A stretch of DNA of 64,000 nucleotides from a phage: the sequence record PZ049694.1; one strand, written 5' to 3'. The notes under the pieces were generated by a model. The model ran no database searches. It was not told the origin of the DNA and saw nothing but the letters and a program-made list of their open reading frames with translations. The position numbers and the translations under genes are program-made. Below are positions 4,620-33,436 of this stretch, one piece after another. Every line of letters begins with the position of its first letter. The first letter of the stretch is position 1.

Positions 4620-4745
4620 CTATTTTAAACTTTTGCGAAATTTGCGTTTTTCTTGACGAATCTGTCGTTTAGTCGGACGTACAGCAAATTTAACGAAGTC
4701 CACTTTGCCGTGTGGAAACTTTTCAGATGCTTCACGGTCCATCAT
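4620..4745 (-). CDS. small basic protein (41 aa) with RPTKRQ motif
   Basis: ATG-ATG start; C-terminal VRPTKRQIRQEKRKFRKSLK; paralog of the small ORFs at 32635-32814 and 33239-33436; below the track's 60-aa cutoff. Confidence 0.3.
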   Translation of the reverse strand: MMDREASEKFPHGKVDFVKFAVRPTKRQIRQEKRKFRKSLK

Positions 4746-4832
4746 TAGTTCCATCCTTCCAGAATAAGAGCTTTCCATTGTGTAGTTGATGCAAATTCGT
4801 ATGTTGATGGTTTAAACACAGTTGAATACATA

Positions 4833-5024
4833 TTATCCTCTGAAATCAGCTTCAAAAACTTTCTCGTCATTAACAAATGCTTTAACTAATGCGTTGTTCA
4901 CTTCAGCAAGTTGTACCGTAACCCACTCGATTTCTTCACGGTCACCTGATAACATGATATCTTTAGTGAACATCTCACCACTTTTAAACCAACCAATAAA
5001 AGTAACTTTAGTTAATTTGCTCAT
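4833..5024 (-). CDS. hypothetical protein (63 aa)
   Basis: Start taken at internal ATG that forms an ATGA overlap with the upstream gene stop. Confidence 0.4.
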   Translation of the reverse strand: MSKLTKVTFIGWFKSGEMFTKDIMLSGDREEIEWVTVQLAEVNNALVKAFVNDEKVFEADFRG

Positions 5025-5338
5025 ATTTCCTCGCAAAATGCCCATTCAGCGTGATAAACTGTAGCACCTTTAGTATTATTCATTTGAACTACGTCTACCG
5101 GAGAAATTACTCGATAGAGACGTGGTTCACCTCCATAAGAGCGTGCTGCTCGTCCTGCATAAATCTTTGCTAAACCGATATCTTCAGTAAAGAATACACG
5201 ATCCAAGTTTTTCTTACGTCCGATTTCAGACAGAACTCCTGTTTCCTCAGGAGGACAAAGCATGTTTTCGATGTTAGCTGAACTGCTTGAACCGTGATAA
5301 AAAATCTTAAATTCTGCTTTACAATCGATGGTTTTCAT
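5021..5338 (-). CDS. hypothetical protein (105 aa)
   Basis: Minus-strand ORF with promoter cassette upstream. Confidence 0.5.
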   Translation of the reverse strand: MKTIDCKAEFKIFYHGSSSSANIENMLCPPEETGVLSEIGRKKNLDRVFFTEDIGLAKIYAGRAARSYGGEPRLYRVISPVDVVQMNNTKGATVYHAEWAFCEEI

Positions 5339-5364
5339 TTTGTTCTCCAGTAGTTGATAGGTCT

Positions 5365-5393
5365 ATAATAACACAACTACTGGAGAAGTAAAC
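5365..5393 (-). promoter_or_regulatory. early-type sigma70 promoter cassette
   Basis: Minus strand -35 GTTTAC, about 17-bp spacer, -10 TATTAT; inverted repeat ggtctat...atagacc-like. Confidence 0.45.
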
Positions 5394-5768
5394 TTAAAAA
5401 CGTAATTTAGATATATCTGCGTTGATTTCGTTTTGGTTTGCGTCGTATGCAATTAAACGAACCGCTTTAGATGGGTCATTCAATGCATAGAAATGATGGA
5501 ACATTGCTCGAACGATATCACCATTTACGAGTTCTACCTGGATAGGAGAACCTTTTTCGAGTTGGAAATGTTCATAAGCTTTGATGGTTCGTAGATAATC
5601 AAGTTTTTGATTTCCAGCTCCAACTATTTGTACGATACGTTTGCCTGTGTTTTCCATACGAGATACAATAGTTTTAGGAGCAAGAATAACGTAGGTTGCC
5701 AGCGGAGAAACTACTTCAACAGTTGTGTTTTCGGTGATTGCAGTAAAAATTGCTTGAGACATATTCAT
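5394..5768 (-). CDS. hypothetical protein (124 aa)
   Basis: Minus-strand ORF immediately downstream of gene 41. Confidence 0.5.
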   Translation of the reverse strand: MNMSQAIFTAITENTTVEVVSPLATYVILAPKTIVSRMENTGKRIVQIVGAGNQKLDYLRTIKAYEHFQLEKGSPIQVELVNGDIVRAMFHHFYALNDPSKAVRLIAYDANQNEINADISKLRF

Positions 5769-5797
5769 AATGTTTTCCTCTTGGTTGGTGTAAGTTC

Positions 5798-5826
5798 ATC
5801 ATATCATGCCTAGAGGAAGATGTAAA
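5798..5826 (-). promoter_or_regulatory. early-type sigma70 promoter
   Basis: Minus strand -35 TTTACA, 17-bp spacer, -10 TATGAT. Confidence 0.45.
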
Positions 5827-5834
5827 CCCCGAAA

Positions 5835-5855
5835 GGAGACCGAAGTCTCCTTTTT
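5835..5855. other. stem-loop between gene 41 and downstream gene
   Basis: ggagac-cgaa-gtctcc (UUCG tetraloop on minus RNA); the T5 run is on the plus side. Confidence 0.4.
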
Positions 5856-5856
5856 A

Positions 5857-7299
5857 TTAAAATTTTAACTCATTGGCTAAGCTATCTAGGTCAGCCCGTG
5901 TTGTTTTGGCTTTACCTACGCGTTCCGTACGATTCACCTCTGCCTGACGCATCTGAGCACCTGCGTTTTCATTTACCGTGTTAGGTGTGTTCATTCCTTC
6001 TTGCTCAATCTCAATCCATTTCTGGTTGCCTTTACGTACACCCATTAGGAATTTATTCCATTTATTCTTATCACCATATCGTGATTTGATTTGTTTGATA
6101 AGTTGTTGTTCAGCTTGTGCAAGTTCTTCGGTTTCAATTACAGCCAACATGAAATCTGCCGTTGCCGGTAAACCTGCTGATTCTGCAATATCGCTCATGT
6201 TCATATCCGAAGCATCCCATGCTGCACGTCCTACTTGAGCTGCAGTCCATAGAACTGTTTCAGATTCTACTGCTAATGCACGAAGTTCTTCTGCGATAGC
6301 TTTAACTAATGTGTAGCTATTTTCAGTATAAACTCTGATACGACAAGACCCACAAATACCTAAGTAATCAACCATGATTACGGATGGCACAAAGTTCTTC
6401 TTAAGTTTTAACTCATTAAGCAATGCACGGAATGTATTAGCATTAGCTCCACCAGTAGGATACTGTTTAACTACTAAACGTCCTAATGTGGATTTTGAAC
6501 GCCATTTTTCCATCTTGGCTTTATATTCAGCATAAGATACGTTGCCATCATCGATATCATCGAGCGATACGTCAAGCATGTTTGCATCTATACGCTTAGC
6601 ACAAACTTCTTCAGCCATTTCCATGGAAATATAAAGAACATTATGACCTGTTTGAAGATAATCTGCAGCAAGTGAACAAAGGCCTAAAGATTTACCAACG
6701 TTAACACCGGCCATTAAAACATTCAGTGTACCGGTTTCAGCACCACCTTTAGTGATTTTATTCAAAATGTTTAATTTGAACGGGACCTTACGTGCTTTGT
6801 TCAGATAAGAAAGCCAGCGTGCTTCGTAGTCTTCCATCCAGTCATGTCCAACATAACTATCAAACGAAATTGAAAGTGCTTGACGCATAATATCAGGAAT
6901 AGCTCCTACGTCAGGCATTTTCTTGTTACGTTGTTCTGGAGGTAATTCAGCATTAGACTGAATCTCAATGATTTTGGATGTAGCATTATACATCGCTTTT
7001 TGCTGGACATATTTCTCAGTTTCTTTAACCAACCATTCATGGTCTTCAGGAGTATCAGCCAATTTTTCAATTAGGTCTGAAGTTCCTTTATATTCGGCTT
7101 CAGTTAAAGAACTGTTATCTAAAGCCACCTTTAATGCATTGATAGATGGCATTGCATTATATTCGTTAACGTGGCTCTTTATAATTTTAAAGACGTTTTT
7201 TGCCGGTCCACGCTCAAAATACTCAGAATCCATATAAGGCCAGACCTTAGAAAAATAAGCCTGGTCATATACGAGATGAGACAAAATAATTTCTACCAC
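5857..7299 (-). CDS. 41: replicative DNA helicase gp41 (DnaB-like)
   Basis: 480 aa; Walker A GVNVGKS; extensive match to remembered T4 gp41; GTG start. Confidence 0.9.
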   Translation of the reverse strand: MVEIILSHLVYDQAYFSKVWPYMDSEYFERGPAKNVFKIIKSHVNEYNAMPSINALKVALDNSSLTEAEYKGTSDLIEKLADTPEDHEWLVKETEKYVQQKAMYNATSKIIEIQSNAELPPEQRNKKMPDVGAIPDIMRQALSISFDSYVGHDWMEDYEARWLSYLNKARKVPFKLNILNKITKGGAETGTLNVLMAGVNVGKSLGLCSLAADYLQTGHNVLYISMEMAEEVCAKRIDANMLDVSLDDIDDGNVSYAEYKAKMEKWRSKSTLGRLVVKQYPTGGANANTFRALLNELKLKKNFVPSVIMVDYLGICGSCRIRVYTENSYTLVKAIAEELRALAVESETVLWTAAQVGRAAWDASDMNMSDIAESAGLPATADFMLAVIETEELAQAEQQLIKQIKSRYGDKNKWNKFLMGVRKGNQKWIEIEQEGMNTPNTVNENAGAQMRQAEVNRTERVGKAKTTRADLDSLANELKF

Positions 7300-7308
7300 G
7301 ATAACTCC

Positions 7309-7650
7309 TTAAAAGAATTTAAATTTTTTCTTGGTCCTTTCATTAAAAGCTTGTTGTACTTGCATTGTAACACATTTTTCAACATGCGGTGCAAGTTCTG
7401 CTTTTCTGTCCTGGTCAAGAACTGCAAAGTCCATTACGATTTTACCATCAACCCAGTCTAGTTTTGTAATATAGACTATATGATGAGAACCATCTTCAAG
7501 TGTAATCAGAATCTCTTGAATGACATTTTCCATTGCTGAACGGATAATTTTAAGAGATTCATTAAACACTCGTTCTTTGCGAATGTCTTCCCCTTCCGAA
7601 GAAGGGGATTCATCAACGATTTCTAGATTTAAATCATCGAGATTATTCAT
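7309..7650 (-). CDS. hypothetical protein at the position of T4 gene 40
   Basis: 113 aa after moving start to internal ATG clear of uvsX; assignment by synteny only. Confidence 0.4.
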   Translation of the reverse strand: MNNLDDLNLEIVDESPSSEGEDIRKERVFNESLKIIRSAMENVIQEILITLEDGSHHIVYITKLDWVDGKIVMDFAVLDQDRKAELAPHVEKCVTMQVQQAFNERTKKKFKFF

Positions 7651-8815
7651 CGAAATCTTCCATTTCGTCAAGGTCGTTTTCTATATCTGCTGCAGACGGA
7701 GCATCAGAAGTTTTAACCGGAACTTTAGTTGTTGCTTTGCAATTAATAAGGTCGTTAACAGCATCATCAACTTCTTTAATAGAAGAGATAGCACCTAGTT
7801 TATATTTAGTTTCAATTGCATCTCGGAAAGGTTTGTGTTTAAACAACGGTCCCCAGAATTCTACACAATCAGTAGCTTTAGCACGCCATGATTTTTCTTC
7901 ACGAATCATTTCACCTGTTTCTTCGTCAAGGAATTCTCGAGCATACCAACCAGCTTTAGGCTTAACCACAAAACCGATTTCAGTTGCCATTTCTAACAAG
8001 CCACTGAATGGGTCGATACCACCATCGAAATTAACCGTGATTGGGAAAGTAGATTTCTCTTTAACTGTACGAGATTTTTCTGCTTTCAACGTGAAGTCAT
8101 AACCGGTCAATTCTGTACCTTCTTTAACCTGACGTTTAGAGATAAAGAATACAGTGTTAGCAGAGTAAAGAATACCTGTACCACCACCCATAATCTCTTT
8201 AGGATACAATCCGCCAATTTCCATTGCTGTATGGTTAATTGCAACACACGGAATATCTTTAATAGTCAGATACGGTGTCACAATACGGAAAAGAGATTTA
8301 AGTGCCTTAGCACGAGACATATCACCTACGACTTTCTCGTTCAATGCATCTTCGGTTTCTTTCTTAGATGCAGTATTACCGATTGAATCGATAAAGATAA
8401 TAACTTTATCACCGCGTTCAATAGCGTCAAGCTGATTAGTCATATCAACTTTAAGTTGTTCGACAGATTGAATCGGAGTATGAACTACACGGTCTAAATC
8501 AACACCCATTGAACGAAAATAAGATTCTGAAGCACCAAATTCTGAATCATAGAACAAACAAATTGCATCTTTATATTTCTTCATATATGCTGCAACCATG
8601 GTCAGCCCAAACAACGTTTTAAAGTGTTTAGAAGGAGCAGCAAAAATAGTTAAGCCTGATTGCAACCCGGCATTCAGTGCACCACCTAATGCAATATTCA
8701 ACATCGGAATACGAGTAGGGACTTCATCACGATTATTAAACAGCTTAGACTTAGTCAAGTCTGCAGTCATTTTAGAAGTAGAAGCTTTAATCAGACGAGA
8801 TTTTAAATCAGACAT
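7643..8815 (-). CDS. uvsX: RecA-like recombinase UvsX
   Basis: 390 aa; N-terminus MSDLKSRLIKASTS and core motifs as remembered for T4 UvsX. Confidence 0.9.
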   Translation of the reverse strand: MSDLKSRLIKASTSKMTADLTKSKLFNNRDEVPTRIPMLNIALGGALNAGLQSGLTIFAAPSKHFKTLFGLTMVAAYMKKYKDAICLFYDSEFGASESYFRSMGVDLDRVVHTPIQSVEQLKVDMTNQLDAIERGDKVIIFIDSIGNTASKKETEDALNEKVVGDMSRAKALKSLFRIVTPYLTIKDIPCVAINHTAMEIGGLYPKEIMGGGTGILYSANTVFFISKRQVKEGTELTGYDFTLKAEKSRTVKEKSTFPITVNFDGGIDPFSGLLEMATEIGFVVKPKAGWYAREFLDEETGEMIREEKSWRAKATDCVEFWGPLFKHKPFRDAIETKYKLGAISSIKEVDDAVNDLINCKATTKVPVKTSDAPSAADIENDLDEMEDFDE

Positions 8816-8914
8816 TGTATTTTTCCATAGGCATCATTATATTTTACTCATGTTTAAAAGATAAGACGATTATATACTAAGGGTTATACAGCATTTAAAA
8901 CTTTAAACAGGCTC

Positions 8915-9463
8915 TTAACGAGCCCATTTGATAATTTCTGTAATCAAATAATTACGTTCGCTTGCATTAAATCCTATAACTTTGTTAGCACCGTCATGAT
9001 TAAGTAATTGATACGTTTGGATTTTGTTATGAATTGCAAACTCTTCAAAATATGAAATGACTGTATTAAAACCGAACGAAGACAAAGTAATAAGGTCGTC
9101 TTCAAAACTTTCAGTCATTTCGTTACGTGTTAAAATAATTGTGAACACATCATGGTTTTGGCAAAGACGAACATAATCCTGTTCATAAACGTCAAGAACC
9201 GAGTCCGCATCTTGTCGAATACGTCCATAAACCCAGTTACTAATATATCCACGGTCTAACAGATAAATCTTAGTAGGGTCTAAATAATTCAACATCGTTT
9301 CGAAACAGCCAACTTCATTTCGAGACTTAACATCGAAACGTCCATCAACTGTTCGTTTAGGGAAATCAATCTTTACATATCTTTCACTAATTTCCATTAT
9401 GTCATTAATGAAAGTTGTTTTACCAGCATTATCCGGGCCATCTACTAAAATAATTTTAGCCAT
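8915..9463 (-). CDS. P-loop kinase, thymidylate/dNMP-kinase-like
   Basis: 182 aa; Walker A GPDNAGKTT; LLDRGYISNWVYG resembles the TMP-kinase DRx..S..Y motif. Confidence 0.55.
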   Translation of the reverse strand: MAKIILVDGPDNAGKTTFINDIMEISERYVKIDFPKRTVDGRFDVKSRNEVGCFETMLNYLDPTKIYLLDRGYISNWVYGRIRQDADSVLDVYEQDYVRLCQNHDVFTIILTRNEMTESFEDDLITLSSFGFNTVISYFEEFAIHNKIQTYQLLNHDGANKVIGFNASERNYLITEIIKWAR

Positions 9464-9464
9464 T

Positions 9465-10364
9465 TTATTCCTCGATTACGACATCTTCATATTTAGGTAT
9501 ATTATACGGTGAAGAAATTAAAGCATTAAAGTAGATGAACTCACCAAGACCTGGATGGAATACTTCTTCAGGATTTTCGAAATATTGAATCTTCGGTCTT
9601 CCTTTAAGAATTTGATAGTACTCAGTTTTAGTTGGTTTAAAAATTCGAATCAGTGCTTCTTCAGGATACTTATTTCTGTCGAAGCTATTATTTGGATCGG
9701 TTATATAAAGCGGTTGACCTAATTGAATTGCGCATTCAACCACTTGTTCAAAACGATAACACGGGTCACTAATTCGAAATGGATGAAAAATACCATCTAG
9801 ATGAATAGGGGCCAAATCACCTACAAGACGCTGCATGATGGAAGGACGTATAACTTTCTGCGTTACGATAATCTTATTACCATCTGCACCAGCGTTAACC
9901 AGCACTTCCTTTTGACGTTTATTCAACACAGTAGTTTGAAGTGAACGATTAACCGACAACATATCGGTTTTTAAGAATTCGTCAATATAAAAACGTGGTT
10001 TATTAGGGTCTGCAGTGATATTGAAATTGAATTCCACATCAAAAGCGCCGTCATATCCAGTGATATCTGTGATTAGAAAATCACAATCATAATAAGCAAT
10101 TAATGAATCAACCACAAATTCATTTTCAGACCAGAAATATTTACGAGTGTTATACGCGTTATCTTTATACCATAATGGAACAAACTTAAATTCTGGGAAA
10201 AGACGTTCACATTCTTTAATATCAGATGCATTACGTGGATATGTAATCACATCACCCGGATTAGCACGGTGCAAATGAAGTTGGAAGTTGCCATCCTTAA
10301 GGATAGCATACTGTCCAGTTTCATAAGACCGCATACTCAAGATAGGTACGCGGAAAATAGCCAT
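9465..10364 (-). CDS. hypothetical protein (299 aa), candidate sugar transferase
   Basis: Occupies the slot where T4 has beta-gt; no recognisable motif; start overlaps the 42-like stop (TAATG). Confidence 0.5.
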   Translation of the reverse strand: MAIFRVPILSMRSYETGQYAILKDGNFQLHLHRANPGDVITYPRNASDIKECERLFPEFKFVPLWYKDNAYNTRKYFWSENEFVVDSLIAYYDCDFLITDITGYDGAFDVEFNFNITADPNKPRFYIDEFLKTDMLSVNRSLQTTVLNKRQKEVLVNAGADGNKIIVTQKVIRPSIMQRLVGDLAPIHLDGIFHPFRISDPCYRFEQVVECAIQLGQPLYITDPNNSFDRNKYPEEALIRIFKPTKTEYYQILKGRPKIQYFENPEEVFHPGLGEFIYFNALISSPYNIPKYEDVVIEE

Positions 10365-11080
10365 TAGTCAAGGAATCCTTTAACATAATCAAAATCACGT
10401 TCAAACACATGGGCACTTACCATGGTATGAGTATAATCACCAACTTCTACACCACATTCGTTAGCGATATAATGAAGTAATTTTCCTTGGAGATAAAAAT
10501 CTAACTGCATAACAACAGCACAGTTCTGAGAACGCATATGGCAGTGGGTATAAAGCTTACCATCACGAATATAATAAGTCACTGAGTCAGTACATGGATA
10601 TTCAAGCGTTTCGTCCGAATCAAGCAAAGCCTGATCTGAACTTTCAAGAATTTGAAACACAACTCTTCGTGAATTAGGTTTCTCTTTAAGTTCTTTTAGA
10701 AGAGCTGGTAATTGGGCCGCAATGCGAGGACCATAGAAAGTGTTGAAGTTCGCCGGCAAAACATCTGATTTTGGTTTAGAAATAAATTTAGCGACATTAG
10801 GATATGCCTTAAACGCTTCTTCTGCGTTGGTACCACCAGAAATCATAAACTTCCAGAAGTCTTCGGCATATTCATAAGAGATGCGGTTAATACGTGGGTC
10901 AGTCATTTTGAATGATGACGGAGTGTCAACAACTACTGTCATAGACCCAATTTCATTACAACGTCCAATACGAGAATCAGTTACGAATTCCGGGTTTTCT
11001 AAAATTTCACGATTGACTGCTTTAAATGCGGTTTGAAAATCTGCGGCTTTGATATATTTCATTGTGTTATGTTTTCCCAT
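10364..11080 (-). CDS. 42: dCMP hydroxymethylase-like enzyme (thymidylate synthase family)
   Basis: 238 aa; TS-family active-site region EYPCTDSVTYYIRDGKLYTHCHMRSQN; divergent from remembered T4 gp42. Confidence 0.7.
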   Translation of the reverse strand: MGKHNTMKYIKAADFQTAFKAVNREILENPEFVTDSRIGRCNEIGSMTVVVDTPSSFKMTDPRINRISYEYAEDFWKFMISGGTNAEEAFKAYPNVAKFISKPKSDVLPANFNTFYGPRIAAQLPALLKELKEKPNSRRVVFQILESSDQALLDSDETLEYPCTDSVTYYIRDGKLYTHCHMRSQNCAVVMQLDFYLQGKLLHYIANECGVEVGDYTHTMVSAHVFERDFDYVKGFLD

Positions 11081-11359
11081 GTTTACCTCAATACAATTTA
11101 TTATATACTCAATTCGTAAAGCTTATTTGAATTTCTTGACAATGTTGATATAACGTAAAGCTTCAGCATCGATACTTCCAAGAACACTATGAAGAAATGC
11201 ATCAGCGTAGTATTCCAATTGAACAGGTTTCTTTAATCACTTTAGCCGCTTTAGTTTCAAACAGGCCCATCAGGGCCTTTTTAAGAATTTGTTCATTAGT
11301 GTTCAGTTTCATAGTCAAAATCTCTTCATTAAGTTGGTGGTTAAAAGTTTTTCTAGAAA

Positions 11360-12520: not shown

Positions 12521-12577
12521 TTTTTTACATCTCGCGTTAATTGATGCGATGGTTTTTTGCAGGTCTTACTTAAATTA

Positions 12578-24859: not shown

Positions 24860-24903
24860 ATTATTTCCTCATTAGTTAATTCATTCTATCATCCGTTTAT
24901 AAA

Positions 24904-24931
24904 GCAAAAAAAGGAACTCCGAAGAGTTCCT
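24904..24931 (-). terminator. rho-independent terminator
   Basis: ggaactc-cgaa-gagttcc hairpin (UUCG loop on minus RNA) followed on the minus strand by U7. Confidence 0.65.
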
Positions 24932-25103: not shown

Positions 25104-25142
25104 GCATAATCACCTCTCAGAAAATACCTAAATCGATTTCTC

Positions 25143-25647: not shown

Positions 25648-25648
25648 A

Positions 25649-25864
25649 TTATCTCATTAAATTAAAATAAAAACGTCCATCCTCTTCAATACAGAACTCA
25701 TACTCAACCGGAGTCCCATTTATCGAAAATGACACGTCATGTGGGTTCAAAGGGTCGATGTCAAAATTAATTTTAAATTCACGACCCAACAGTTTTACCA
25801 AATAAGGGATTGCTTCGTCAAAAGGTTCTTCTAAGTAGTTAGAGATGTCAATTGTCATCCTCAT
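25649..25864 (-). CDS. hypothetical protein (about 71 aa)
   Basis: Track ORF 25649-25942 trimmed to an internal ATG clear of gene 55. Confidence 0.4.
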
Positions 25865-26405
25865 ATAAAAAATCCAAACTAGGCGAATCGCTAACAACTT
25901 CCTTCTTTTCAGCCCCAGGAGCTTTATAAGCGGATTCTTCATAATGCGTCATTTTATCGTAGATGTCTTGAATAAACGTTTCATCTACCAACGCTACCAT
26001 ATCATCGTCATGACTGTCGTAGACATTATGAACGAAGTAACTATATTTCTTTGCAACTTCCTTACGTTCTTTTTTGATACGTTGGACAAAAGCATTAAAA
26101 CAAGCTCGAGTTATGTATGCATGTGGGTTATTGTACTTAGTTTCGTCGAAATTATGAAGTCCCTTAATAGAGGCTTCAATCCCATCTGCAATCATCTCCT
26201 GCTTCCAAGACTGGGTATATCCTGAAAAGTTGAAACGTTTGGACAGGCCTTCGGCGATAAGCATAATTGCTAAACCGATGGTATCATTCTGACGAATAAT
26301 TTTGTTTGGGTCTTTATTATTTAAGAGCTCCTTTTTCCACTCGATTATAGCGGCGAGAAGCTCTTTATTATTCACATAGTTATTTTTAGGTTTTTGTCCA
26401 GTCAT
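25848..26405 (-). CDS. 55: late-transcription sigma factor gp55
   Basis: 185 aa; [49 protein letters not shown] near-identical to remembered T4 gp55. Confidence 0.92.
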
Positions 26406-26477
26406 AAGTACCTCTTAGCTCAATTCATAGGTCTATTATATCATAATATTTGGAGACCTATCTTAAAGCACGAGATA

Positions 26478-26747
26478 CTATCGGAGCAAACAATAAGCCT
26501 GAAACACTTTTTCCATTAAACGTTTGAACTCATGGATATCGATATAAAGCTCAGTAAGACCGGCATTATAAAGAAAATCTAAAAAGTTCTCATGAGTTTC
26601 GTTATAGTCGCCTTCGTTTAATTGAGATACATGAGTTTCCCAAAAACCAACACCTTTAACGAATGGAAAATACGTGACTTTCATGTATTCGTCAACATAA
26701 AATTCGCCCAGCTTTTCTTCAGTTATACTGATTCGAGTTAATTTCAT
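26478..26747 (-). CDS. hypothetical protein (89 aa)
   Basis: Minus-strand ORF, translationally coupled chain. Confidence 0.5.
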   Translation of the reverse strand: MKLTRISITEEKLGEFYVDEYMKVTYFPFVKGVGFWETHVSQLNEGDYNETHENFLDFLYNAGLTELYIDIHEFKRLMEKVFQAYCLLR

Positions 26748-26971
26748 TCTAGTTCCTTTGCTGCTTCAAGAGCATCATCCAACGAATCAAATTGGTCAAC
26801 GAAATCGATATTCAACGCATCGTCAGCCGTAGCATATAGCCACCATTGTTTGAATTCATATTCTAGGATAAATCCAAGCCCTTCAATCTGAGAAAGACCT
26901 AGGCTATTTGTACCAACTTCGTAACCAGCTAGACGCAGGTCATTAATCAAAGATTCTGTTAATACGCTCAT
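26744..26971 (-). CDS. hypothetical protein (75 aa)
   Basis: Minus-strand ORF, 4-nt overlap with neighbour. Confidence 0.5.
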   Translation of the reverse strand: MSVLTESLINDLRLAGYEVGTNSLGLSQIEGLGFILEYEFKQWWLYATADDALNIDFVDQFDSLDDALEAAKELE

Positions 26972-27300
26972 TTTACCGCCTTAACAATTTTCAGGTCAAC
27001 GAATTTTTTCTTACGTTGATTTTTCATACGACGGATAGTCTTTTCAGAGATTTCATGTTTCTGATAAGCTTTAGATTCAACACCAAATGCAGCAACGTCA
27101 AATTCAGAAAGAATATATTGTACTAGAATTTCACGAATAGAATTACGTCCAATTTTCTGGTCGTGTTTTTGCATGATTTCATAAAGACGGAATTCCCACG
27201 CGTCAAGGACTTGAGGAGTAACAATATTGCCGGATTCCAGAAGAGCAACAACTTTATCGAAAGCGAAAGAATTAACTACGTTTTTGATTTTAGTAGACAT
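26968..27300 (-). CDS. hypothetical protein (110 aa)
   Basis: Track start 27369 lies inside the promoter cassette; internal ATG at 27300 has SD GAGGAAA. Confidence 0.5.
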   Translation of the reverse strand: MSTKIKNVVNSFAFDKVVALLESGNIVTPQVLDAWEFRLYEIMQKHDQKIGRNSIREILVQYILSEFDVAAFGVESKAYQKHEISEKTIRRMKNQRKKKFVDLKIVKAVK

Positions 27301-27319
27301 ATTATTTTCCTCGGTTATT

Positions 27320-27368
27320 TTATTATCCAATGAGAGAGCATTATACTCTGCTCTCAAGAGTTTGTGCA
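27320..27368 (-). repeat. 47-bp promoter/stem-loop cassette, copy 1
   Basis: ttattatccaatgagagagcattatactctgctctcaagagtttgt; near-identical to 57498-57543; -10 TATAAT on minus strand inside inverted repeat gagagca...tgctctc. Confidence 0.65.
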
Positions 27369-27608
27369 TTATTCCGTGATAAGATAATGTAAATAGTTTG
27401 CTTGACGAACACTGATATCAACACCCATATCAAAGATACCTTTATAGAACGGGTATTTGTTTTCAGTAGAATCTAGACTAAAAGCCTTTCCACCACAACT
27501 AACGGTAATAGCATCAGTTAAAGTGTCATATACAAACTTAATAGTTGAGCCATTCACTACGACTTCAAGACGTTTTTTCGATGTAATAATGTCTAATTCT
27601 TGTTCCAT
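27369..27608 (-). CDS. hypothetical protein (79 aa)
   Basis: Minus-strand ORF. Confidence 0.5.
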   Translation of the reverse strand: MEQELDIITSKKRLEVVVNGSTIKFVYDTLTDAITVSCGGKAFSLDSTENKYPFYKGIFDMGVDISVRQANYLHYLITE

Positions 27609-27671
27609 GATATTTTCCTCATTTTAAGACGATAGGAAGATAATAACATGTCTTCCTATCGTTGTATATTA

Positions 27672-27884
27672 TTAACCGAACTTTTTAGCGCCTTTCCAGC
27701 CTTCGTACATAGTTGCGCAAGTCAATAGCACAGCATGTTGACATTCTTTGTATTTGTAAATCCAGAACCAACGTAAAAAGTCTTCATCCTCAACACCGTT
27801 GAGTTTCATATTGGCAAAGAATTCGGCACGTTCTTCACGAAGTTGCCATGACACAATATTTTCAGGATTCATTTTGTGTTCCAC
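27672..27884 (-). CDS. hypothetical protein (70 aa)
   Basis: Minus-strand ORF. Confidence 0.45.
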   Translation of the reverse strand: MEHKMNPENIVSWQLREERAEFFANMKLNGVEDEDFLRWFWIYKYKECQHAVLLTCATMYEGWKGAKKFG

Positions 27885-28096
27885 GCCCCATTTTCATCGA
27901 TGAACTTAATCCAGTCATTTACAGACCATTTAGTTGTATCACCCTTTGGATTAGCATTTAAAGTATATAATCCCTGCTTAAAAAGCATTCGTTTGATGTT
28001 CATAATTTCCTCAACTGTAACGATAACATTCGTTAGCTTTACGTTTGGCTTCAGTATGAGAAGTATTATAATCATAATCTTCTTTACTGTAAACAT
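27869..28096 (-). CDS. hypothetical protein (75 aa), hydrophobic N-terminus
   Basis: Overlaps the 28011-28331 ORF; true start uncertain. Confidence 0.4.
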   Translation of the reverse strand: MFTVKKIMIIILLILKPNVKLTNVIVTVEEIMNIKRMLFKQGLYTLNANPKGDTTKWSVNDWIKFIDENGAWNTK

Positions 28097-28331
28097 CTTT
28101 TTTCAACTTACGAACTTCTTTGCGGAGTTGTCGATTCATTTCGTTCTTGACTTCGGAATCAACGCCTTTCATACGTTTCCATTTATCTGAGCGGAAAATG
28201 TTTTCAACCATGTCTTTGTGGCTAACACCGTCAGGAGCTTTACGTTTACCAAAATAGTCATAATCACGAACTTTCAAATCTTTACGACGATACGTTTTAC
28301 CCATAAGTACCTCAGAGGTTGATTGATACAA
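28011..28331 (-). CDS. hypothetical basic protein (106 aa)
   Basis: Lys/Arg-rich minus-strand ORF. Confidence 0.45.
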   Translation of the reverse strand: MYQSTSEVLMGKTYRRKDLKVRDYDYFGKRKAPDGVSHKDMVENIFRSDKWKRMKGVDSEVKNEMNRQLRKEVRKLKKDVYSKEDYDYNTSHTEAKRKANECYRYS

Positions 28332-28560
28332 TACGTTTGATAAAATTCACTTCACTTACTGAAAGGTCTTTAAGACCGATTGATTCTAAACGCTGAGTAA
28401 GAGTCAACATTGGGATATAGTCCCATTGTGTTTTAGACGTTTGATAAGTACGGACGCCATTAGCAATTTCAACATGCAAATCTGAAATGGTAACGAATAC
28501 TAGACGCTCATCATTAACTTTAAGGGTTAGAACAACTTTCTTTGAATCTAAACTAATCAT
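28312..28560 (-). CDS. hypothetical protein (82 aa)
   Basis: Minus-strand ORF. Confidence 0.45.
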   Translation of the reverse strand: MISLDSKKVVLTLKVNDERLVFVTISDLHVEIANGVRTYQTSKTQWDYIPMLTLTQRLESIGLKDLSVSEVNFIKRIVSINL

Positions 28561-28901
28561 GGCTTAATTTCCTTAGCAATTGAACAGAAGATACCACGGT
28601 CACAAAGCATTTCACCAATTTCTGGATATTTGATTGAACGGTACCAAACATCCAGGCTTGAAACTCTGGTTATCTGTACTGCATTACCGTTGACAGAATA
28701 GTACTGGTCGACCTTAATTTCTTTATCTTCAATTGTCATTTTATTTTCCTCTATAGTAGATGGTTTAATCTTAACACATCTATTGAGGATGTAAACTGTT
28801 TTATGAAAATATTTTTTGATTTGAGAGTGGCACAAGGAGATAGTGAAGTGAAGATTCCAATGGATTATATTAGAAATGAGATAAAGAAGACCAGGCGGCA
28901 C
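28557..28901 (-). CDS. hypothetical protein (114 aa)
   Basis: Minus-strand ORF. Confidence 0.45.
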   Translation of the reverse strand: MPPGLLYLISNIIHWNLHFTISLCHSQIKKYFHKTVYILNRCVKIKPSTIEENKMTIEDKEIKVDQYYSVNGNAVQITRVSSLDVWYRSIKYPEIGEMLCDRGIFCSIAKEIKP

Positions 28902-28905
28902 CTGG

Positions 28906-29229
28906 TCAATCTTCTATGATATCGGAGTCATATCCTAATGAAATCAAGGACTTTTTAAACTCTGCAATATTCTTTTGTTTCTTATCATTTAAAAATATGA
29001 CAGGATAACGAATATTAAGTGAAGTGAATCCTGCACGTTTAGCAAGAGATACGATTAAAGGACGGTCATATTCAATCTTACCATTATTAGTGAGGACTTT
29101 ATAAAATGTATAAGGAGCATTGAGCTCCTTTAAAAGTTTTGTAACAGTATAACATCCCGGACAACGTCCTACTTCTTCAGGGATGCCATAAATTTCAATC
29201 TTGTTCTTTAAGTTCGAGTTTTGTTCCAC
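28906..29229 (-). CDS. thioredoxin-fold redoxin (NrdH/glutaredoxin-like)
   Basis: IEIYGIPEEVGRCPGCYTV with CxxC active site; track ORF trimmed to a candidate GTG start with AAGGA SD; start uncertain. Confidence 0.5.
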   Translation of the reverse strand: MEQNSNLKNKIEIYGIPEEVGRCPGCYTVTKLLKELNAPYTFYKVLTNNGKIEYDRPLIVSLAKRAGFTSLNIRYPVIFLNDKKQKNIAEFKKSLISLGYDSDIIED

Positions 29230-29512
29230 GAGAAATAATTCCTTGGTAAGCCCAATAAGGAGGATTAACAGAATCCTCGCCAGAGTTTTCTTCAGGAAAA
29301 TAAACCTGGATAACAAATCCAGATTCATCAAAGGTAAAATAAACTGTAGGCAGTTCACCTAACAATTCGGCACGAGCATTAATTTCTTCGAGATCTCGTT
29401 CACGTCCAGCCCAAAAACTAGGATTTAGATTACATTCGTAAAAATAATAGTCATTACCGAACATATCAAAACCTTTCCAACTCTCTACCACATACCGCTC
29501 AAAACTAATCAT
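29195..29512 (-). CDS. hypothetical protein (105 aa)
   Basis: Minus-strand ORF. Confidence 0.45.
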   Translation of the reverse strand: MISFERYVVESWKGFDMFGNDYYFYECNLNPSFWAGRERDLEEINARAELLGELPTVYFTFDESGFVIQVYFPEENSGEDSVNPPYWAYQGIISRGTKLELKEQD

Positions 29513-29514
29513 AA

Positions 29515-29730
29515 TTAAGCCTTTTTATCAAGAACAGAATTCAGTTTATTAGTAATTTTGTCCAAACGTTCATTGAATTCGCTGGAGGATAAACCCTTTT
29601 CCGGAGAAATTAAACTAATCAAGAAAAATACAACAGTAAAAGGAATAAGAAAAATAGCTCCAACTGCCATAAACAAAAAGAACGTTACAGTTGTAAGAAA
29701 ATCAGCTAAACCTTTACGAAATTTATACAT
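29515..29730 (-). CDS. small membrane protein (71 aa)
   Basis: Hydrophobic core FLTTVTFFLFMAVGAIFLIPFTVVFFLISLI. Confidence 0.45.
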   Translation of the reverse strand: MYKFRKGLADFLTTVTFFLFMAVGAIFLIPFTVVFFLISLISPEKGLSSSEFNERLDKITNKLNSVLDKKA

Positions 29731-29840
29731 ATTTACCCTTAATTAACTAAGCATTGATAAACACCAAACTATACTGCGAATAAAATTCTGGACCAAAACG
29801 AAAAATCATATCATTTATAGTATCCATAATGTAATTCAAT

Positions 29841-30311
29841 TTAATCATGTTTCCACACCCCATCGGTATTTGACCAAAGTCGCTGATTATCTGATCCTCG
29901 CCACAGTTTTTTGGTCGGAAGATTTTTCTCATACTTCCCATCAATAATAACATCAACATATTTAAGCATTTCTAGTTGTTTAATATCTTCAAACTTATAT
30001 CCTGTCCACAACCAAATGCTTTTATTGGGATAAAGATTTTTTACTGTTTGAGCAATGCAATGAACAACATCTCTGTTATCGGGATAGAGAGGGTCTCCTC
30101 CAGTTATAGTTAATCCTTCTATATAATCATTATTCAAACATTCAATTAATTGCTCTAGTGTTTCACCCGTGAATGGAATACCATTTCTAGCGTTCCATGT
30201 TGATTTATTATAACACCCTTCGCATTTATGCAAACAACCTGTAACGAAAAGAACGACCCTGCAACCAGGGCCATTCACAAAATCGCAAGGATAAAATCTA
30301 TCATAATTCAT
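29841..30311 (-). CDS. nrdG: anaerobic ribonucleotide reductase activating protein NrdG (radical SAM)
   Basis: 156 aa; CLHKCEGC radical-SAM cysteine triad; ATGA overlap with nrdD. Confidence 0.9.
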   Translation of the reverse strand: MNYDRFYPCDFVNGPGCRVVLFVTGCLHKCEGCYNKSTWNARNGIPFTGETLEQLIECLNNDYIEGLTITGGDPLYPDNRDVVHCIAQTVKNLYPNKSIWLWTGYKFEDIKQLEMLKYVDVIIDGKYEKNLPTKKLWRGSDNQRLWSNTDGVWKHD

Positions 30312-32125
30312 TGGTGTTTAACCCTATGCATGATTTCTTTATTTTTGCCGAGATTAAATCCACGTTCATTCGGATTTCCAAGATAACCGCATGTTCTTCT
30401 TATTGTGTTCATCTTTTTAGGATCAGTTTCTCCACAAATAGAACAAACAAATCCGTTTTCGGTAGGAGTCATTTCATGGGTACTTCCACACGTAAAACAT
30501 TTATCTACTGGCATATTAACACCAAAATAATCTAAATGTTGCGCAGCATAATCCCAGACGGCCTCAAGACCTTTTAAGTTATTTTTCATATCAGGAAGTT
30601 CAACATAAGAAATGTGTCCACCGGTCGCAATGAAATGATATGGGGCTTCGCGAGAAATCTTTTCAAACGGAGTAATATTTTCTTCTACTGAAACGTGGAA
30701 ACTATTAGTGTACCAGCCTTTATCAGTAACATCTTTTACACTTCCATATTTTTCGGTATCAAGTTTACAGAAGCGATAGCACAGGTTTTCAGCAGGTGTA
30801 GAATACAAACTAAAAGCAAAACCGGTTCTTTCAGTCCACTGCTTAAGACGAGCATTCATTTTAGTTAAAATTTCCTGTCCAATATCACGTCCGACAAGAA
30901 TATTCAATTCGTGAATACCAATGTATCCTAAAGACACTGAACTTCTACCGTTTTTAAATAACTCAATTATATCATCATCAGGTTTAAGACGAACCCCGAA
31001 TGCACCTTCTTGGTAAAGAATAGGAGCAACAGTAGCTTTAACTCCTTTTAAGGAACTAATTCTACACATCAAAGCTTCAAAACACAGATCCATTCGTTCA
31101 TTAAATAGCTCAACAAATTTCTGTTCATTGAATTGTGTTCCAATATAAGAATCTAACGCAATACGAGGAAGATTCAGTGTTACAACACCGAGATTATTAC
31201 GTCCATCAAGAATTTCATTACCGGTCGAATCTTTCCATACGCTCAAGAAACTACGGCAACCCATTGGAGAAACAGGAATAGATGAACCAGTGATAGCTTT
31301 ATTATTCTTAACTGAAATAATATCAGGATACATTCTTTTGCTTGCACATTCTAATGCAAGTTGTTTAATATCATAGTTCGGGTCGTCTTTATAAAGATTG
31401 ACACCCTCTTCAACGAACATAACAAGTTTAGGGAAAATAGGAGTTATCCCATCGCGACCAAGACCTTTAATGCGGTTTTTAAGAATTGCCTTCTGAATAA
31501 TTCGTTCAGTCCAGTCAGTTCCAGTACCAAATGTAATTGTTACAAAAGGCGTTTGTCCGTTTGAACTAAAGAGAGTATTTACTTCGTATTCATACGCTTG
31601 GAATGCATCGTATACGTCTTTTTCTGTTTTAGATTGGGCATAATTCAACGCATCAGCGATTTGCCATTTTTCTGCATCCTCAATATGTTTTGCATAGGTG
31701 CGTTTAACATAAGGAGAAAGTACTTTATCTACATTAGCAAAAGTCGTTCCGCCGTACTGATGTGAAGCAACTTGTGCGGTAATTTGTGCCATAATTGCAG
31801 TAGCAACGCCAATCGATTTAGGCGTTTCAATTTGAGCATTACCTAGCTTAAATCCGTTTTCAAGCATTCCTTTTAAATCTACTAAACAACAATTAGTAAA
31901 TGGAAGAGCAGGGGAATAATCAATATCATGGAAATGGATAATTCCGCTTTCATGTGCTTTCATAATAAAAGACGGGACCATATTTTTGGCAATGTGCTTA
32001 GACACAATACCAGCCATAAGGTCCCGTTGAGTTGGAAAAACACGAGAATCTTTATTAGCATTCTCGTTTAAAAGGTCTTTATTAGTTTTATGAATCAATC
32101 CTTCAATTTCTTTTTCAATTGTCAT
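30308..32125 (-). CDS. nrdD: anaerobic ribonucleoside-triphosphate reductase NrdD
   Basis: 605 aa, continuous (no intron); C-terminal glycyl-radical region RRTCGYLG and Zn-ribbon cysteines. Confidence 0.95.
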   Translation of the reverse strand: MTIEKEIEGLIHKTNKDLLNENANKDSRVFPTQRDLMAGIVSKHIAKNMVPSFIMKAHESGIIHFHDIDYSPALPFTNCCLVDLKGMLENGFKLGNAQIETPKSIGVATAIMAQITAQVASHQYGGTTFANVDKVLSPYVKRTYAKHIEDAEKWQIADALNYAQSKTEKDVYDAFQAYEYEVNTLFSSNGQTPFVTITFGTGTDWTERIIQKAILKNRIKGLGRDGITPIFPKLVMFVEEGVNLYKDDPNYDIKQLALECASKRMYPDIISVKNNKAITGSSIPVSPMGCRSFLSVWKDSTGNEILDGRNNLGVVTLNLPRIALDSYIGTQFNEQKFVELFNERMDLCFEALMCRISSLKGVKATVAPILYQEGAFGVRLKPDDDIIELFKNGRSSVSLGYIGIHELNILVGRDIGQEILTKMNARLKQWTERTGFAFSLYSTPAENLCYRFCKLDTEKYGSVKDVTDKGWYTNSFHVSVEENITPFEKISREAPYHFIATGGHISYVELPDMKNNLKGLEAVWDYAAQHLDYFGVNMPVDKCFTCGSTHEMTPTENGFVCSICGETDPKKMNTIRRTCGYLGNPNERGFNLGKNKEIMHRVKHQ

Positions 32126-32595
32126 TTTAAACTCTTTCTAAGCTGCTTTTTGAATGAAGCTATTAATTGTGTTTTAGTATCAGATTCATTATATTCAAAT
32201 CCTCTTTGAAGCATCTCAGCCATCATTTCCTCTTTACCTAGTCTTGAGAACTCTTTAGTTTTGTCTGGAACAAAATTAGGATGGATATTATTATCAGAAT
32301 AATCTTGTTTCAAATAAGCAAGAAGAGCTTCAAGCCATTCGAGGTAGTCGACATCACGTCCTTTAAGACCGGAACGGTTGAACTTATGCTTCATTTGACC
32401 TTCTGCTGCGTTGCACAGATTACAGAGTAATCCACGAACTCTACCGGCTTTTGGCCCGTTTAATTCATGGTCGTGGTCAAGATGGTTACCTTGAACATCA
32501 GGGTCTAATTCACGGTGGCAAATAGGACACTTACCATTCTGTGCATCATAAAATTTTTGTTTTTCTTCTTTATATTTTGCGCCTGATAATAACAT
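32122..32595 (-). CDS. 49: Holliday-junction resolvase Endonuclease VII (gp49)
   Basis: 157 aa; near-identical to remembered T4 Endo VII (GNHLDHDHELNGPKAGRVRGLLCNLCNAAEGQ). Confidence 0.92.
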   Translation of the reverse strand: MLLSGAKYKEEKQKFYDAQNGKCPICHRELDPDVQGNHLDHDHELNGPKAGRVRGLLCNLCNAAEGQMKHKFNRSGLKGRDVDYLEWLEALLAYLKQDYSDNNIHPNFVPDKTKEFSRLGKEEMMAEMLQRGFEYNESDTKTQLIASFKKQLRKSLK

Positions 32596-32624
32596 GATAA
32601 ACCCTTACCTTAAATAGATAAGGG

Positions 32625-32632
32625 TATTTATA
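32625..32632 (-). promoter_or_regulatory. T4-type late promoter (TATAAATA)
   Basis: Plus strand tatttata 30 nt upstream of the gene 49 start. Confidence 0.55.
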
Positions 32633-32634
32633 AT

Positions 32635-32814
32635 TTAATAAATGTTATAAAAGTCACGATGGAAACGTTTGTATTGGCGAATCATTCTTTTAGTAGGACG
32701 TGTTACCGAAATGATTGAAGTCCTCATGTTCGGATTGTTTGGAGCACCAATTATAACAAATTTCCAAGATTTTTGACCGTTTGTTCTTTCGCCAAAAAAT
32801 AATGCAGTTTTCAT
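32635..32814 (-). CDS. small basic protein (59 aa), RPTKR family
   Basis: C-terminus ISVTRPTKRMIRQYKRFHRDFYNIY; paralog of 33239-33436; below track cutoff. Confidence 0.35.
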   Translation of the reverse strand: MKTALFFGERTNGQKSWKFVIIGAPNNPNMRTSIISVTRPTKRMIRQYKRFHRDFYNIY

Positions 32815-32823
32815 AATAGGCCC

Positions 32824-33237
32824 TTAACTTAAACGTCTTTCTAAATATTCAATGTATTCCGCTGCGGCTTGCATCAGATTACCTTCATAACCGTCATTAT
32901 TTTCTTGGGCGGCTAATTTAGCTAAAGCATAAGAAATACGTTCACCTTCGAATTCGCCAAGTCCACCATCACAAACTACTTGGTCAATTTCTTCGAGTTC
33001 ATCTATTGAATGGGATTCCCAGAAGCACCAAAGAGAAGTATCACGGTCATAGATGCAAAGTTTCTCACCTGTGTTCAACATCACTTCGATAATGCCATGG
33101 TCGCCATAACCATCTTCGGTAGTAGTACCAATTACCTTGATGATCGTATCTTTCTTTAATTCAGGAAACTTATCTTGGAGTTCTTCGTCTTCTTTAACAA
33201 TCTTGAACCATTTACCGCGAGTTTCAGAAATATTCAT
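32824..33237 (-). CDS. hypothetical protein (137 aa)
   Basis: Minus-strand ORF flanked by the two RPTKR-family ORFs. Confidence 0.5.
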   Translation of the reverse strand: MNISETRGKWFKIVKEDEELQDKFPELKKDTIIKVIGTTTEDGYGDHGIIEVMLNTGEKLCIYDRDTSLWCFWESHSIDELEEIDQVVCDGGLGEFEGERISYALAKLAAQENNDGYEGNLMQAAAEYIEYLERRLS

Positions 33238-33238
33238 A

Positions 33239-33436
33239 TCAATATTCTCTATAAAAGTTACGATGAGAACGTTTAGCTTTGCGAAGCTGACGTTTAGTAG
33301 GACGAACTGTAAATGGTTGTCCAGAGAAAAAATTTGGTTCAGTTTTAATCAACACATACCAATCGTGTTCGCCGCTTTTTAATAAACGATATAACAATTT
33401 AACTTGCATAATAATCTCTTCCCATTTCCATATCAA
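33239..33436 (-). CDS. small basic protein (65 aa), RPTKR family
   Basis: C-terminus FTVRPTKRQLRKAKRSHRNFYREY; DNA about 70 percent identical to the 32635-32814 copy with mainly third-position differences. Confidence 0.4.
   Translation of the reverse strand: MIWKWEEIIMQVKLLYRLLKSGEHDWYVLIKTEPNFFSGQPFTVRPTKRQLRKAKRSHRNFYREY

Follow-up and report, generated by a model that had tools for sequence, protein, structure and literature searches.

TifA-family genes in an RB69-like phage: a frameshifted tifA and two short paralogs flanking pin

TifA and the anti-TA island of T4-like phages

An "anti-TA island" has been proposed for T4-like phages (PMC9391042). Three of its products, Dmd, AdfA (gp61.2) and TifA, are small proteins made early that each counter a host toxin (PMC9391042); TifA has no sequence relationship to the other two. 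TifA (ToxN inhibitory factor A), the renamed gp61.4, is a protein that inhibits ToxN, a type III toxin, and dmd is the upstream partner of tifA in the early dmd-tifA operon (PMC9391042). TifA has been described from T4, T2, T6 and RB69 (PMC9391042, PMC10853763). It is one of few counter-defence proteins of phages whose mechanism has been worked out, an unusual one in which a toxin RNase is trapped on ribosomal RNA. According to the published work on the RB69 protein, RNA is bound by the basic helix, and ToxN is contacted by the sheet and a variable loop. Free ToxN is thereby held, for the most part on 16S rRNA, within a large ribonucleoprotein, and phage transcripts stay uncut. A P53 T54 K55 R56 R59 motif caps the basic helix of RB69 TifA, RNA is bound with a KD of 0.36-2.3 uM, and the P53A T54A and K55A R56A R59A mutants lose both RNA co-purification and ToxN neutralisation (PMC10853763). 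In vitro, the affinity of TifA for ssDNA and dsDNA is similar to that for RNA, with no clear sequence preference (PMC10853763). The RNA antitoxin of the type III ToxIN system, toxI, occupies the ToxN surface that TifA is predicted to use (PMC10853763); however, toxI is a processed 36-nt RNA repeat, while the TifA-family elements reported here act as proteins.

Three TifA-family loci in the window

The DNA analysed here (the window) is a 64,000-nt stretch of PZ049694.1, which derives from an RB69-like T4-type coliphage (Mosigvirus). A sequence-only reading had singled out three minus-strand ORFs with a common RPTKR motif, and this observation holds: in the six-frame translation of the window the motif occurs exactly three times, always on the minus strand (4665-4679, 32686-32700 and 33290-33304), while the window's own six-frame composition predicts ~0.05 chance occurrences. 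A local family HMM recovers the three ORFs as they stand in the window (E 8e-34, 5e-27 and 5e-18), and among all six-frame ORFs of at least 20 aa it finds no fourth copy, the next match being 38268-38351 (E 0.08), which lacks the PT motif. All three proteins are members of Pfam PF23945 (DUF7279), an entry for a domain of unknown function, with bit scores of 72.1, 53.8 and 52.4 for copies 1, 2 and 3, all over the curated cut-off of 24.5; the score for copy 1 was taken with the intact RB69 sequence. Intact RB69 TifA matches DUF7279 with E 3.5e-20 and PHROG 2375 with E 1.4e-29, and the window's own C-terminal frame of copy 1 still scores E 5e-18 with the local HMM. By contrast, copies 2 and 3, which we refer to as the 087c type and the 089c type after RB69ORF087c and RB69ORF089c, fall into PHROG 3272 (E 1.8e-30 and 7.9e-26, respectively) next to their DUF7279 matches (E 1.8e-14 and 4.9e-14). 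NCBIfam gave no match. The link between DUF7279 and TifA, and the split into a long, dmd-linked and a short, pin-linked subfamily, are made in this analysis.

Compared at the sequence level, copy 1 (4620..4831, minus strand) is tifA. It matches RB69 61.4 with 99% mean column identity, and the stretch differs from 61.4 by a 1-nt gap and a few substitutions and by nothing else. Its ATG at 4831 lies directly downstream of the end at 4833 of dmd (4833..5024, minus strand, open frame to 5045; Pfam Dmd E 5.7e-21 and RB69 annotation), which encodes the antitoxin against RnlA/LsoA. Thus, copy 1 has the post-dmd position of the described tifA orthologs and lies inside the anti-TA island, in the gene order 61.2, sp, imm, imm.1, tifA, dmd, whereas copies 2 and 3 are not adjacent to dmd and flank pin. 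Unlike the described orthologs, copy 1 is frameshifted. One base is lost from a GGG run (GGG in RB69, GG here; 4751..4752, minus strand), and the shifted frame runs into a TAA, which shares two bases with an ATG (TAATG, 4747-4743). The gene is split into an N-terminal piece of 28 aa, from ATG 4831 to TAA 4747-4745, and a C-terminal piece of 41 aa (MMDREAS...RPTKRQIRQEKRKFRKSLK), from ATG 4745 to the stop at 4620-4622. The first ORF of the sequence-only reading (4620-4745) is this C-terminal piece, cut off by the 1-nt deletion, and not a separate gene. The reading frames of copies 2 and 3, the members of the short subfamily, are intact.

Either full-length TifA has been lost in the PZ049694.1 phage or the base call is wrong. 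We give slightly less than an even chance to the view that this short homopolymer was misread or misassembled and that the phage makes full-length TifA. The deletion is absent from 67 of 67 matching phage records, all of which span 77 nt against the 76-nt query, the change is the loss of one base from a run of Gs, and similar homopolymer shifts are found in family members of other deposited sequences. On the other hand, GGG is a short run for a systematic homopolymer error, and the sequence is not error-ridden overall: compared with its nearest relative, phage S143_2, the window has six indels in 25 kb, of which none is in gp43, gp41, gp44/62/45, gp46/47 or uvsX, and tifA is the only named conserved gene affected. 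Moreover, the loss of an accessory counter-defence gene is plausible during propagation on a toxIN-free host. The PZ049694.1 phage may, therefore, be without functional TifA, in which case sensitivity to toxIN is predicted.

Copies 2 and 3 form a separate cluster ~28 kb from the anti-TA island. The 087c type (32635..32814, minus strand; 59 aa, pI 11.4) lies between pin and its downstream neighbour gene 49, which encodes endonuclease VII (32122..32595, minus strand; ORF list, JS09 and RB69 annotation). The 089c type (33239..33409, minus strand; 56 aa, pI 10.5) lies between pin and its upstream neighbour, a 49.1 homolog (33399..33548, minus strand; ORF list, JS09 and mar007P3 annotation). The two copies had been seen to flank a gene of 137 aa beside that for endonuclease VII, as they indeed do, and the enclosed gene is pin (32824..33237, minus strand; Pfam Inhibitor_I24 E 3.4e-47, PHROG 2167 and JS09 annotation), which encodes the host Lon protease inhibitor PinA. 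A start of the third ORF at TTG 33436 had been proposed; the annotation of relatives favours ATG 33409, most likely the true start, which gives the protein of 56 aa. From this ATG, the gene shares 11 nt with the end of 49.1, and its TGA is 1 nt ahead of the pin ATG. To judge from gene order, expression of both copies probably accompanies that of pin and precedes the late phase. Scans for promoters and terminators near the two loci returned counts equal to those for shuffled sequence. The late promoter of gene 49 and a hairpin follow immediately downstream of the 087c type.

Each of the three proteins, if intact, has 56-70 aa, is very basic and is expected to consist of a three-stranded beta-sheet followed by a C-terminal alpha-helix. 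The helix would correspond to (V/T)RPTKR(Q/M)(I/L)R..KR..R, with a Pro-Thr cap and a lining of Lys and Arg. Profile alignment of the short paralogs with the long TifA proteins (hhalign) gives 98% probability and E 1.9e-13 over 48 columns that span strand 2, the loop, strand 3 and the helix. R52, P53, T54, K55, R56, R59, K62, R63 and R66 (RB69 TifA numbering) are identical in all three copies, and copies 2 and 3 retain every residue that has been shown to be required for RNA binding in TifA. AlphaFold2 models have a pLDDT of 87.7 for the 087c type (strands 2-9, 15-22 and 31-36, helix 42-58) and 82.6 for the 089c type (strands 3-9, 15-24 and 27-33, helix 39-55), with the predicted helix beginning right after PT in both. 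The predicted fold of the paralogs matches the published description of TifA, i.e. a three-strand sheet and a PT-capped helix. However, TifA has 70-85 aa, while the paralogs have 56-59 aa and are without ~10 N-terminal residues of TifA and without the T4-type C-terminal extension. Also, at the position at which TifA contacts ToxN, their loop is shorter and unrelated in sequence. We considered that the paralogs might be without the whole "20-aa loop" of TifA, and rejected this because the profile alignment places the differences in a loop ~3 residues shorter and an N-terminal region ~10 residues shorter.

A word-indexed homolog search returned 16 proteins, which also carry DUF7279, and an exhaustive search of 1.8 billion representatives returned 22 clusters at E <=0.001, mostly small (41-161 aa) TifA-like proteins. 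By these searches, the TifA family is small and its homologs give no pointer to function. Foldseek against the PDB gave nothing with E <0.3, hence no solved structural analog that supports a function, and against viral predicted structures it gave weak matches alone, to uncharacterised T4-like phage proteins.

Selection on the paralogs and recombination across their repeat

The earlier suggestion of selection at the protein level is borne out by the DUF7279 membership of all three copies, by the behaviour of mutated and recoded T4 tifA (see below) and, foremost, by the ortholog pN/pS of the pin-flanking copies. The latter is ~0.15 for the 089c type and ~0.15 for the 087c type, within Mosigvirus and within Dhakavirus/Tequatrovirus, with orthologs taken from GenBank phage records (an IMG/VR scan gave 11 loci only) and with the 087c alignment anchored on the motif. 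The argument on which the sequence-only reading had based this suggestion, that the differences between copies fall mostly at third codon positions, fails: in the 16-codon motif region the three pairs differ by 6/4/6, 4/3/8 and 6/4/4 at the first, second and third positions. Of the sequence-only reading, the three motif copies and the flanking of the 137-aa gene stand, while the status of ORF 1, the start of ORF 3 and the third-position claim do not.

In copies 2 and 3, the DNA that encodes the helix also forms a 55-nt direct repeat that brackets pin. Arm 1 (32646..32700) encodes the RPTKR...HR.FY helix of the 087c type and arm 2 (33250..33304) the helix of the 089c type; the arms are 78% identical with a spacing of 604 nt. 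A contiguous 089c::087c junction without pin is present in 28 records (~25 distinct related phages). In this chimera, the crossover is at the end of arm 1, in the common ACTTTTATA, and 814 - 210 nt = 604 nt are lost. As read from these junctions, recombination across the helix-coding repeat has, in many related phages, deleted pin and joined the two paralogs. The 087c type is present in 359 phage records; in each of the three genera inspected it lies where pin meets gene 49, Tequatrovirus PP01 and Dhakavirus JS98 included. The 146 phage records with the 089c type include none that is named as from outside the Escherichia/Shigella Mosigvirus group. T4 has neither type, many Mosigviruses have one paralog alone or a chimera, and frameshifts recur in deposited sequences of the short paralogs, including that of 089c in the RB69 reference sequence. 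Judged by these records, the two paralogs are dispensable in nature.

The repeat raises the question of whether the stretch is conserved as an element of DNA or RNA, with the ORFs incidental, a possibility already named in the sequence-only reading; such an element could be a site for recombination, a regulatory RNA or a decoy of the toxI kind. In line with this, the repeat has demonstrably acted as a crossover site, and copies 2 and 3 differ synonymously in only one of 10 conserved codons. However, copy 1 differs synonymously from copies 2 and 3 in 5 and 6 of 11 conserved codons, respectively, with CGA, AGA and CGT used for the same Arg, the low pN/pS covers the entire paralog ORFs beyond the repeat, and these ORFs yield confident AlphaFold2 folds. 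Rfam has no match in the region, its sole matches across the whole window being two tRNAs at 60024-60175. For T4 TifA, a start-codon deletion is inactive while a recoded gene with 55 of 258 nt changed is active (PMC9391042), which rules out such an element for the founding member of the family. The pN/pS values, the recoded T4 tifA and the Rfam result together speak against an element as the explanation of the conservation, the recombination is best taken for a side effect of the paralogy, and we regard incidental ORFs as highly improbable. By contrast, we consider it very probable that copies 2 and 3 are protein-coding paralogs of the TifA family, that copy 1 is tifA and that the repeat has served as a recombination substrate.

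Possible functions of the short paralogs

The proposal that the basic tail binds nucleic acid gains support from the measured RNA binding of RB69 TifA. From the conservation of the residues involved, we infer that copies 2 and 3 would bind RNA via the basic helix; because TifA also binds ssDNA and dsDNA, RNA is not the sole possible ligand of the paralogs. In the model that we favor, the 087c and 089c types would be small RNA-binding proteins that apply the tethering principle of TifA to some other partner, with a further host RNase toxin or a defence nuclease as the most plausible choice. That this partner is other than ToxN has, in our estimate, an even chance. More tentatively, the short paralogs may be counter-defence proteins with toxin specificities unlike that of TifA, which tether a nuclease to bulk RNA and form, with PinA, a second anti-toxin island; the content of this island (089c, pin and 087c, or a fused 089c::087c) would then be reshuffled by repeat recombination, adapting the phage to the defences of its hosts. 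We put this extended version forward as a possibility with less than an even chance.

Alternatively, copies 2 and 3 could be redundant ToxN inhibitors that provide extra TifA dosage or a back-up. They share the family and an identical RNA-binding helix with TifA, a higher tifA dosage in T4 overcomes plasmid-borne toxIN (PMC9391042), and toxIN restricts RB69, which has the paralogs, less than it does T4 (PMC9391042), from which they are absent. However, plasmid-expressed RB69 TifA by itself already inhibits ToxN more strongly than T4 TifA does (PMC9391042, PMC10853763), and 089c is frameshifted in the RB69 reference. The loop with position 41, which tunes ToxN binding, is among the parts of the paralogs that diverge from TifA. 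Specificity in the family is, moreover, narrow: ten TifA homologs, all of the long type, have been assayed against toxins, and six of these neutralised none of the seven tested (PMC10853763). Family membership does not, therefore, predict anti-ToxN or any anti-toxin function, and redundancy with TifA seems quite unlikely to us. A housekeeping role of copies 2 and 3 as small proteins with general nucleic-acid binding, which would bind mRNA, ribosomes or DNA or exert translational control of their neighbours and have no part in anti-defence, also seems unlikely to us, if somewhat less so. Their pI of 10.5-11.4, the broad nucleic-acid binding of TifA (PMC10853763) and the place of the 087c type just ahead of the late promoter and hairpin at gene 49 would fit such a role. 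But the presence/absence polymorphism of the paralogs in close relatives, their absence from T4 and their recurrent frameshifts form the pattern of accessory, host-dependent genes and not of core functions, and the one family member that has been characterised acts in counter-defence.

The TifA family is known, and copies 2 and 3 are new, uncharacterised members of it. The literature searched holds no mention of RB69ORF087c, RB69ORF089c or DUF7279, and within it none of the TifA papers from 2023 onward mentions paralogs. For annotation, three "hypothetical proteins" become TifA-family proteins. The pin-less allele is a concrete natural case of paralog-mediated remodelling of an accessory cassette in T4-like phages. 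Thus, RB69-like phages carry, beyond TifA, two more conserved family members under purifying selection and, because these keep the RNA-binding helix and change the presumed specificity loop, they represent two candidate inhibitors of other RNA-targeting defences.

TifA-family genes in the window

The window comes from an RB69-group coliphage of the T4 type (Mosigvirus) and is 97-98.5% identical to S143_2, JS09 and RB69 over 25 kb, with an exact match to none of the three. It also contains two adjacent tRNA genes (60024-60175, minus strand; Rfam tRNA, 71 and 59 bits). The sequence-only reading had drawn attention to three ORFs with a common RPTKR motif, an observation that is confirmed and goes well beyond what chance would give. 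In a six-frame translation of the window, RPTKR occurs exactly three times (4665-4679, 32686-32700 and 33290-33304), while ~0.05 occurrences would be predicted from the amino-acid composition of the window itself. An HMM of the family picks out these three ORFs (E 8e-34, 5e-27 and 5e-18) and no further credible match in the window. All three are minus-strand ORFs surrounded by early and middle genes. They belong to a family that is already known, TifA/DUF7279: the three proteins match Pfam DUF7279 (PF23945) with 72, 54 and 52 bits (cut-off, 24.5 bits), while the PHROG families separate copy 1 (2375) from copies 2 and 3 (3272).

Copy 1 is tifA (61.4), which encodes the inhibitor of the type III toxin ToxN and directly follows dmd; the same region holds 61.2/adfA, and Srikant et al. 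named the dmd/tifA/61.2 region the "anti-TA island" (PMC9391042). The ORF at 4620-4745 is present, but it is the C-terminal fragment of this longer gene rather than a separate gene. In RB69 TifA numbering, the motif corresponds to V51 R52 P53 T54 K55 R56 Q57 I58 R59. Thus, the motif picked out from sequence is the functional RNA-binding motif of TifA, in agreement with the nucleic-acid binding that had been proposed. The TifA helix is capped by the conserved Pro-Thr, the KD of RB69 TifA for RNA is 0.36-2.3 µM and, in the presence of TifA, ToxN becomes part of a large ribonucleoprotein in which 16S rRNA is enriched (Guegler et al., PMC10853763).

Two short paralogs flank pin

Copies 2 and 3 indeed flank a 137-aa gene close to the Endo VII gene. 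The enclosed gene is pin, encoding PinA, an inhibitor of the host Lon protease (Pfam Inhibitor_I24, E 3e-47), and gene 49 (Endo VII) lies directly downstream of the pin/paralog block. Copy 2 (32635-32814, RB69ORF087c type, here 087c) has 59 aa and is located between pin and gene 49. Copy 3 (RB69ORF089c type, here 089c) is located between 49.1 and pin; the gene proposed at 33239-33436 exists, but its start is most likely ATG 33409, giving 56 aa as annotated in relatives, and not TTG 33436. The 087c type is present in 359 phage records and at the pin-49 junction in all three genera inspected, and the 089c type in 146 records, none of them named outside the Escherichia/Shigella Mosigvirus group.

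R52, P53, T54, K55, R56, R59, K62, R63 and R66 are invariant across the three copies, and every helix residue mutated in TifA is kept in copies 2 and 3. AlphaFold2 models (pLDDT 87.7 for 087c and 82.6 for 089c) show three strands followed by a helix starting immediately after PT. In a profile-profile comparison, the short subfamily aligns with long TifA over 48 columns covering the second strand, loop, third strand and helix (98% probability, E 1.9e-13). By contrast, the N-terminal region of the paralogs is ~10 residues shorter than in TifA, and their loop, which holds position 41, has an unrelated sequence and is shorter by ~3 residues; in TifA, position 41 tunes ToxN binding (PMC10853763). 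Both paralogs are very basic (pI 11.4 for 087c and 10.5 for 089c).

Differences between copies had been thought to fall mostly at third codon positions. This is not the case, as the 16 motif codons give 6/4/6, 4/3/8 and 6/4/4 by position. Selection on the protein is nevertheless evident among orthologs, with pN/pS of 0.15 for 089c (pooled, eight distinct sequences) and, for 087c, of 0.15 both within Mosigvirus and within Dhakavirus/Tequatrovirus. The genes are packed as in T4, i.e. the 089c ATG overlaps 49.1, a single nt separates the 089c TGA from the pin ATG, and AAGGG stands before the 087c ATG. Moreover, no Rfam family matches the paralog region, and T4 tifA is inactive upon start-codon deletion and active when recoded (PMC9391042). 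Based on these data together with the conservation, we reject a DNA or RNA element as the explanation of the conserved stretch.

Several signals lie nearby. A sigma-70-like site (33459-33487, minus strand; TTTACA, 17 nt, TATGAT, with TG) is inside 49.1, ~50 nt upstream of the 089c ATG; such sites are no more frequent near 089c than in shuffled sequence. Directly after the 087c stop, a T4-type late-promoter-like TATAAATA (32632-32625, minus strand) is followed by a hairpin (32624-32602, minus strand; -12.9 kcal/mol, z -3.0), the 3' arm of which contains the gene 49 Shine-Dalgarno sequence. The element is similar to the regulatory hairpin known from T4 gene 49, and its counterpart in phage G2285 is annotated as a terminator. 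In the Tequatrovirus PP01, a 56-aa ORF between 49.2 and nrdC (locus L004, 429-599), near pin and an 087c-type gene, is annotated as 'antitoxin from a toxin-antitoxin system'.

What might the paralogs do? All ten TifA homologs tried against toxins are long and listed as their own phage's tifA, none being of the 087c or 089c type, and six of the ten were active on none of seven toxins (PMC10853763); specificity within the family is thus narrow. Neither TifA paper (PMC9391042, PMC10853763) mentions paralogs or pin, the literature searched contained no mention of RB69ORF087c, RB69ORF089c or DUF7279, and fold searches with the paralog models returned no informative analog; what copies 2 and 3 do is therefore an inference. 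With the RNA-binding helix retained and the loop diverged, we consider it most likely, at about even odds, that copies 2 and 3 are RNA-binding small proteins whose target would be a host factor distinct from ToxN, neutralised by TifA-like tethering. A general nucleic-acid-binding role, with which the basic character is compatible, is improbable, and redundant inhibition of ToxN, which the shared helix would allow and the altered loop would not favor, slightly more so. The placement around a Lon inhibitor gene is suggestive. Phage proteins that inhibit Lon, T7 Gp4.5 among them, reportedly counteract toxin-antitoxin defence (Sberro et al. 2013), and this parallel may serve as a lead.

Recombination between the paralogs and loss of pin

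A 55-nt direct repeat brackets pin (32646-32700 and 33250-33304; 78% identical, spacing 604 nt), and its arms correspond to the segments of copies 2 and 3 that encode the helix. Related phages have five architectures at 49.1-49: 49.1-089c-pin-087c-49 (type A; this window, RB69, JS09), 49.1-089c-pin-49 (type B; mobillu, mar007P3, LF82-5), 49.1-pin-087c-49 (type C; G2285, ESCO47 and, in Tequatrovirus, PP01), 49.1-089c::087c chimera-49 without pin (type D; ESh27, phiE142) and 49.1-pin-49 (type E; T4, which has neither 087c nor 089c). The type D sequence is 089c-like up to CATCGTAACTTTTATA and thereafter 087c-like through the stop, late promoter and gene 49, with the crossover within the shared ACTTTTATA (loci L018, 1301-1511, and L016, 2501-2710); the loss is exactly 604 nt (814 vs 210). 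A junction-spanning query found the contiguous chimera in 28 records, representing ~25 distinct phages, all related Mosigvirus isolates. Thus, the paralogs are also a substrate for pin deletion, which is either recurrent or widely inherited. Such a deletion is in line with T4, in which tifA is amplified through short-homology recombination (PMC9391042).

A frameshift in tifA

RB69 61.4 has 70 aa. In the window, the GGG run at 4751-4752 is one G short, and the tifA frame from ATG 4831 ends after 28 aa at a TAA overlapping ATG 4745. This 1-nt deletion is present in none of 67 matching phage records. Over 25 kb, just six indels separate the window from the nearest relative, S143_2; of the named conserved genes, they affect tifA alone, and those for replication and recombination are intact. 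The odds that the frameshift is a real loss rather than an isolated base-calling error are roughly even. If it is real, the TAATG overlap could permit re-initiation of a 41-aa fragment with the loop, last strand and helix; because the N-terminal strands are missing, this fragment would probably fail to inhibit ToxN.

Homopolymer shifts also occur in other deposited family members. For instance, the RB69 reference 089c (L023, 48375-48535) carries an additional base in an A-run, its annotated length being only 38 aa; an 087c from IMG/VR (L006, 2480-2520) has T7 in place of T6, and the 087c copy in O157 typing phage 3 (hit H110) aligns in two pieces.

A homolog of 61.2/adfA, a published counter to DarTG, is at ~2872-3522 (minus strand), 1.1 kb downstream of tifA; its position is based on synteny alone (S143_2 and RB69). 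With this homolog, the window contains the whole published island of adfA, dmd and tifA. A 105-aa ORF of the RB69ORF040c type (5021-5338, minus strand) overlaps the dmd start and has no Pfam match; by its position only, it is a candidate for a further counter-defence gene.

The extent of novelty is modest but concrete: two conserved short TifA-family paralogs around pin, their acting as recombination arms, and a tifA gene that is possibly inactivated in this genome.
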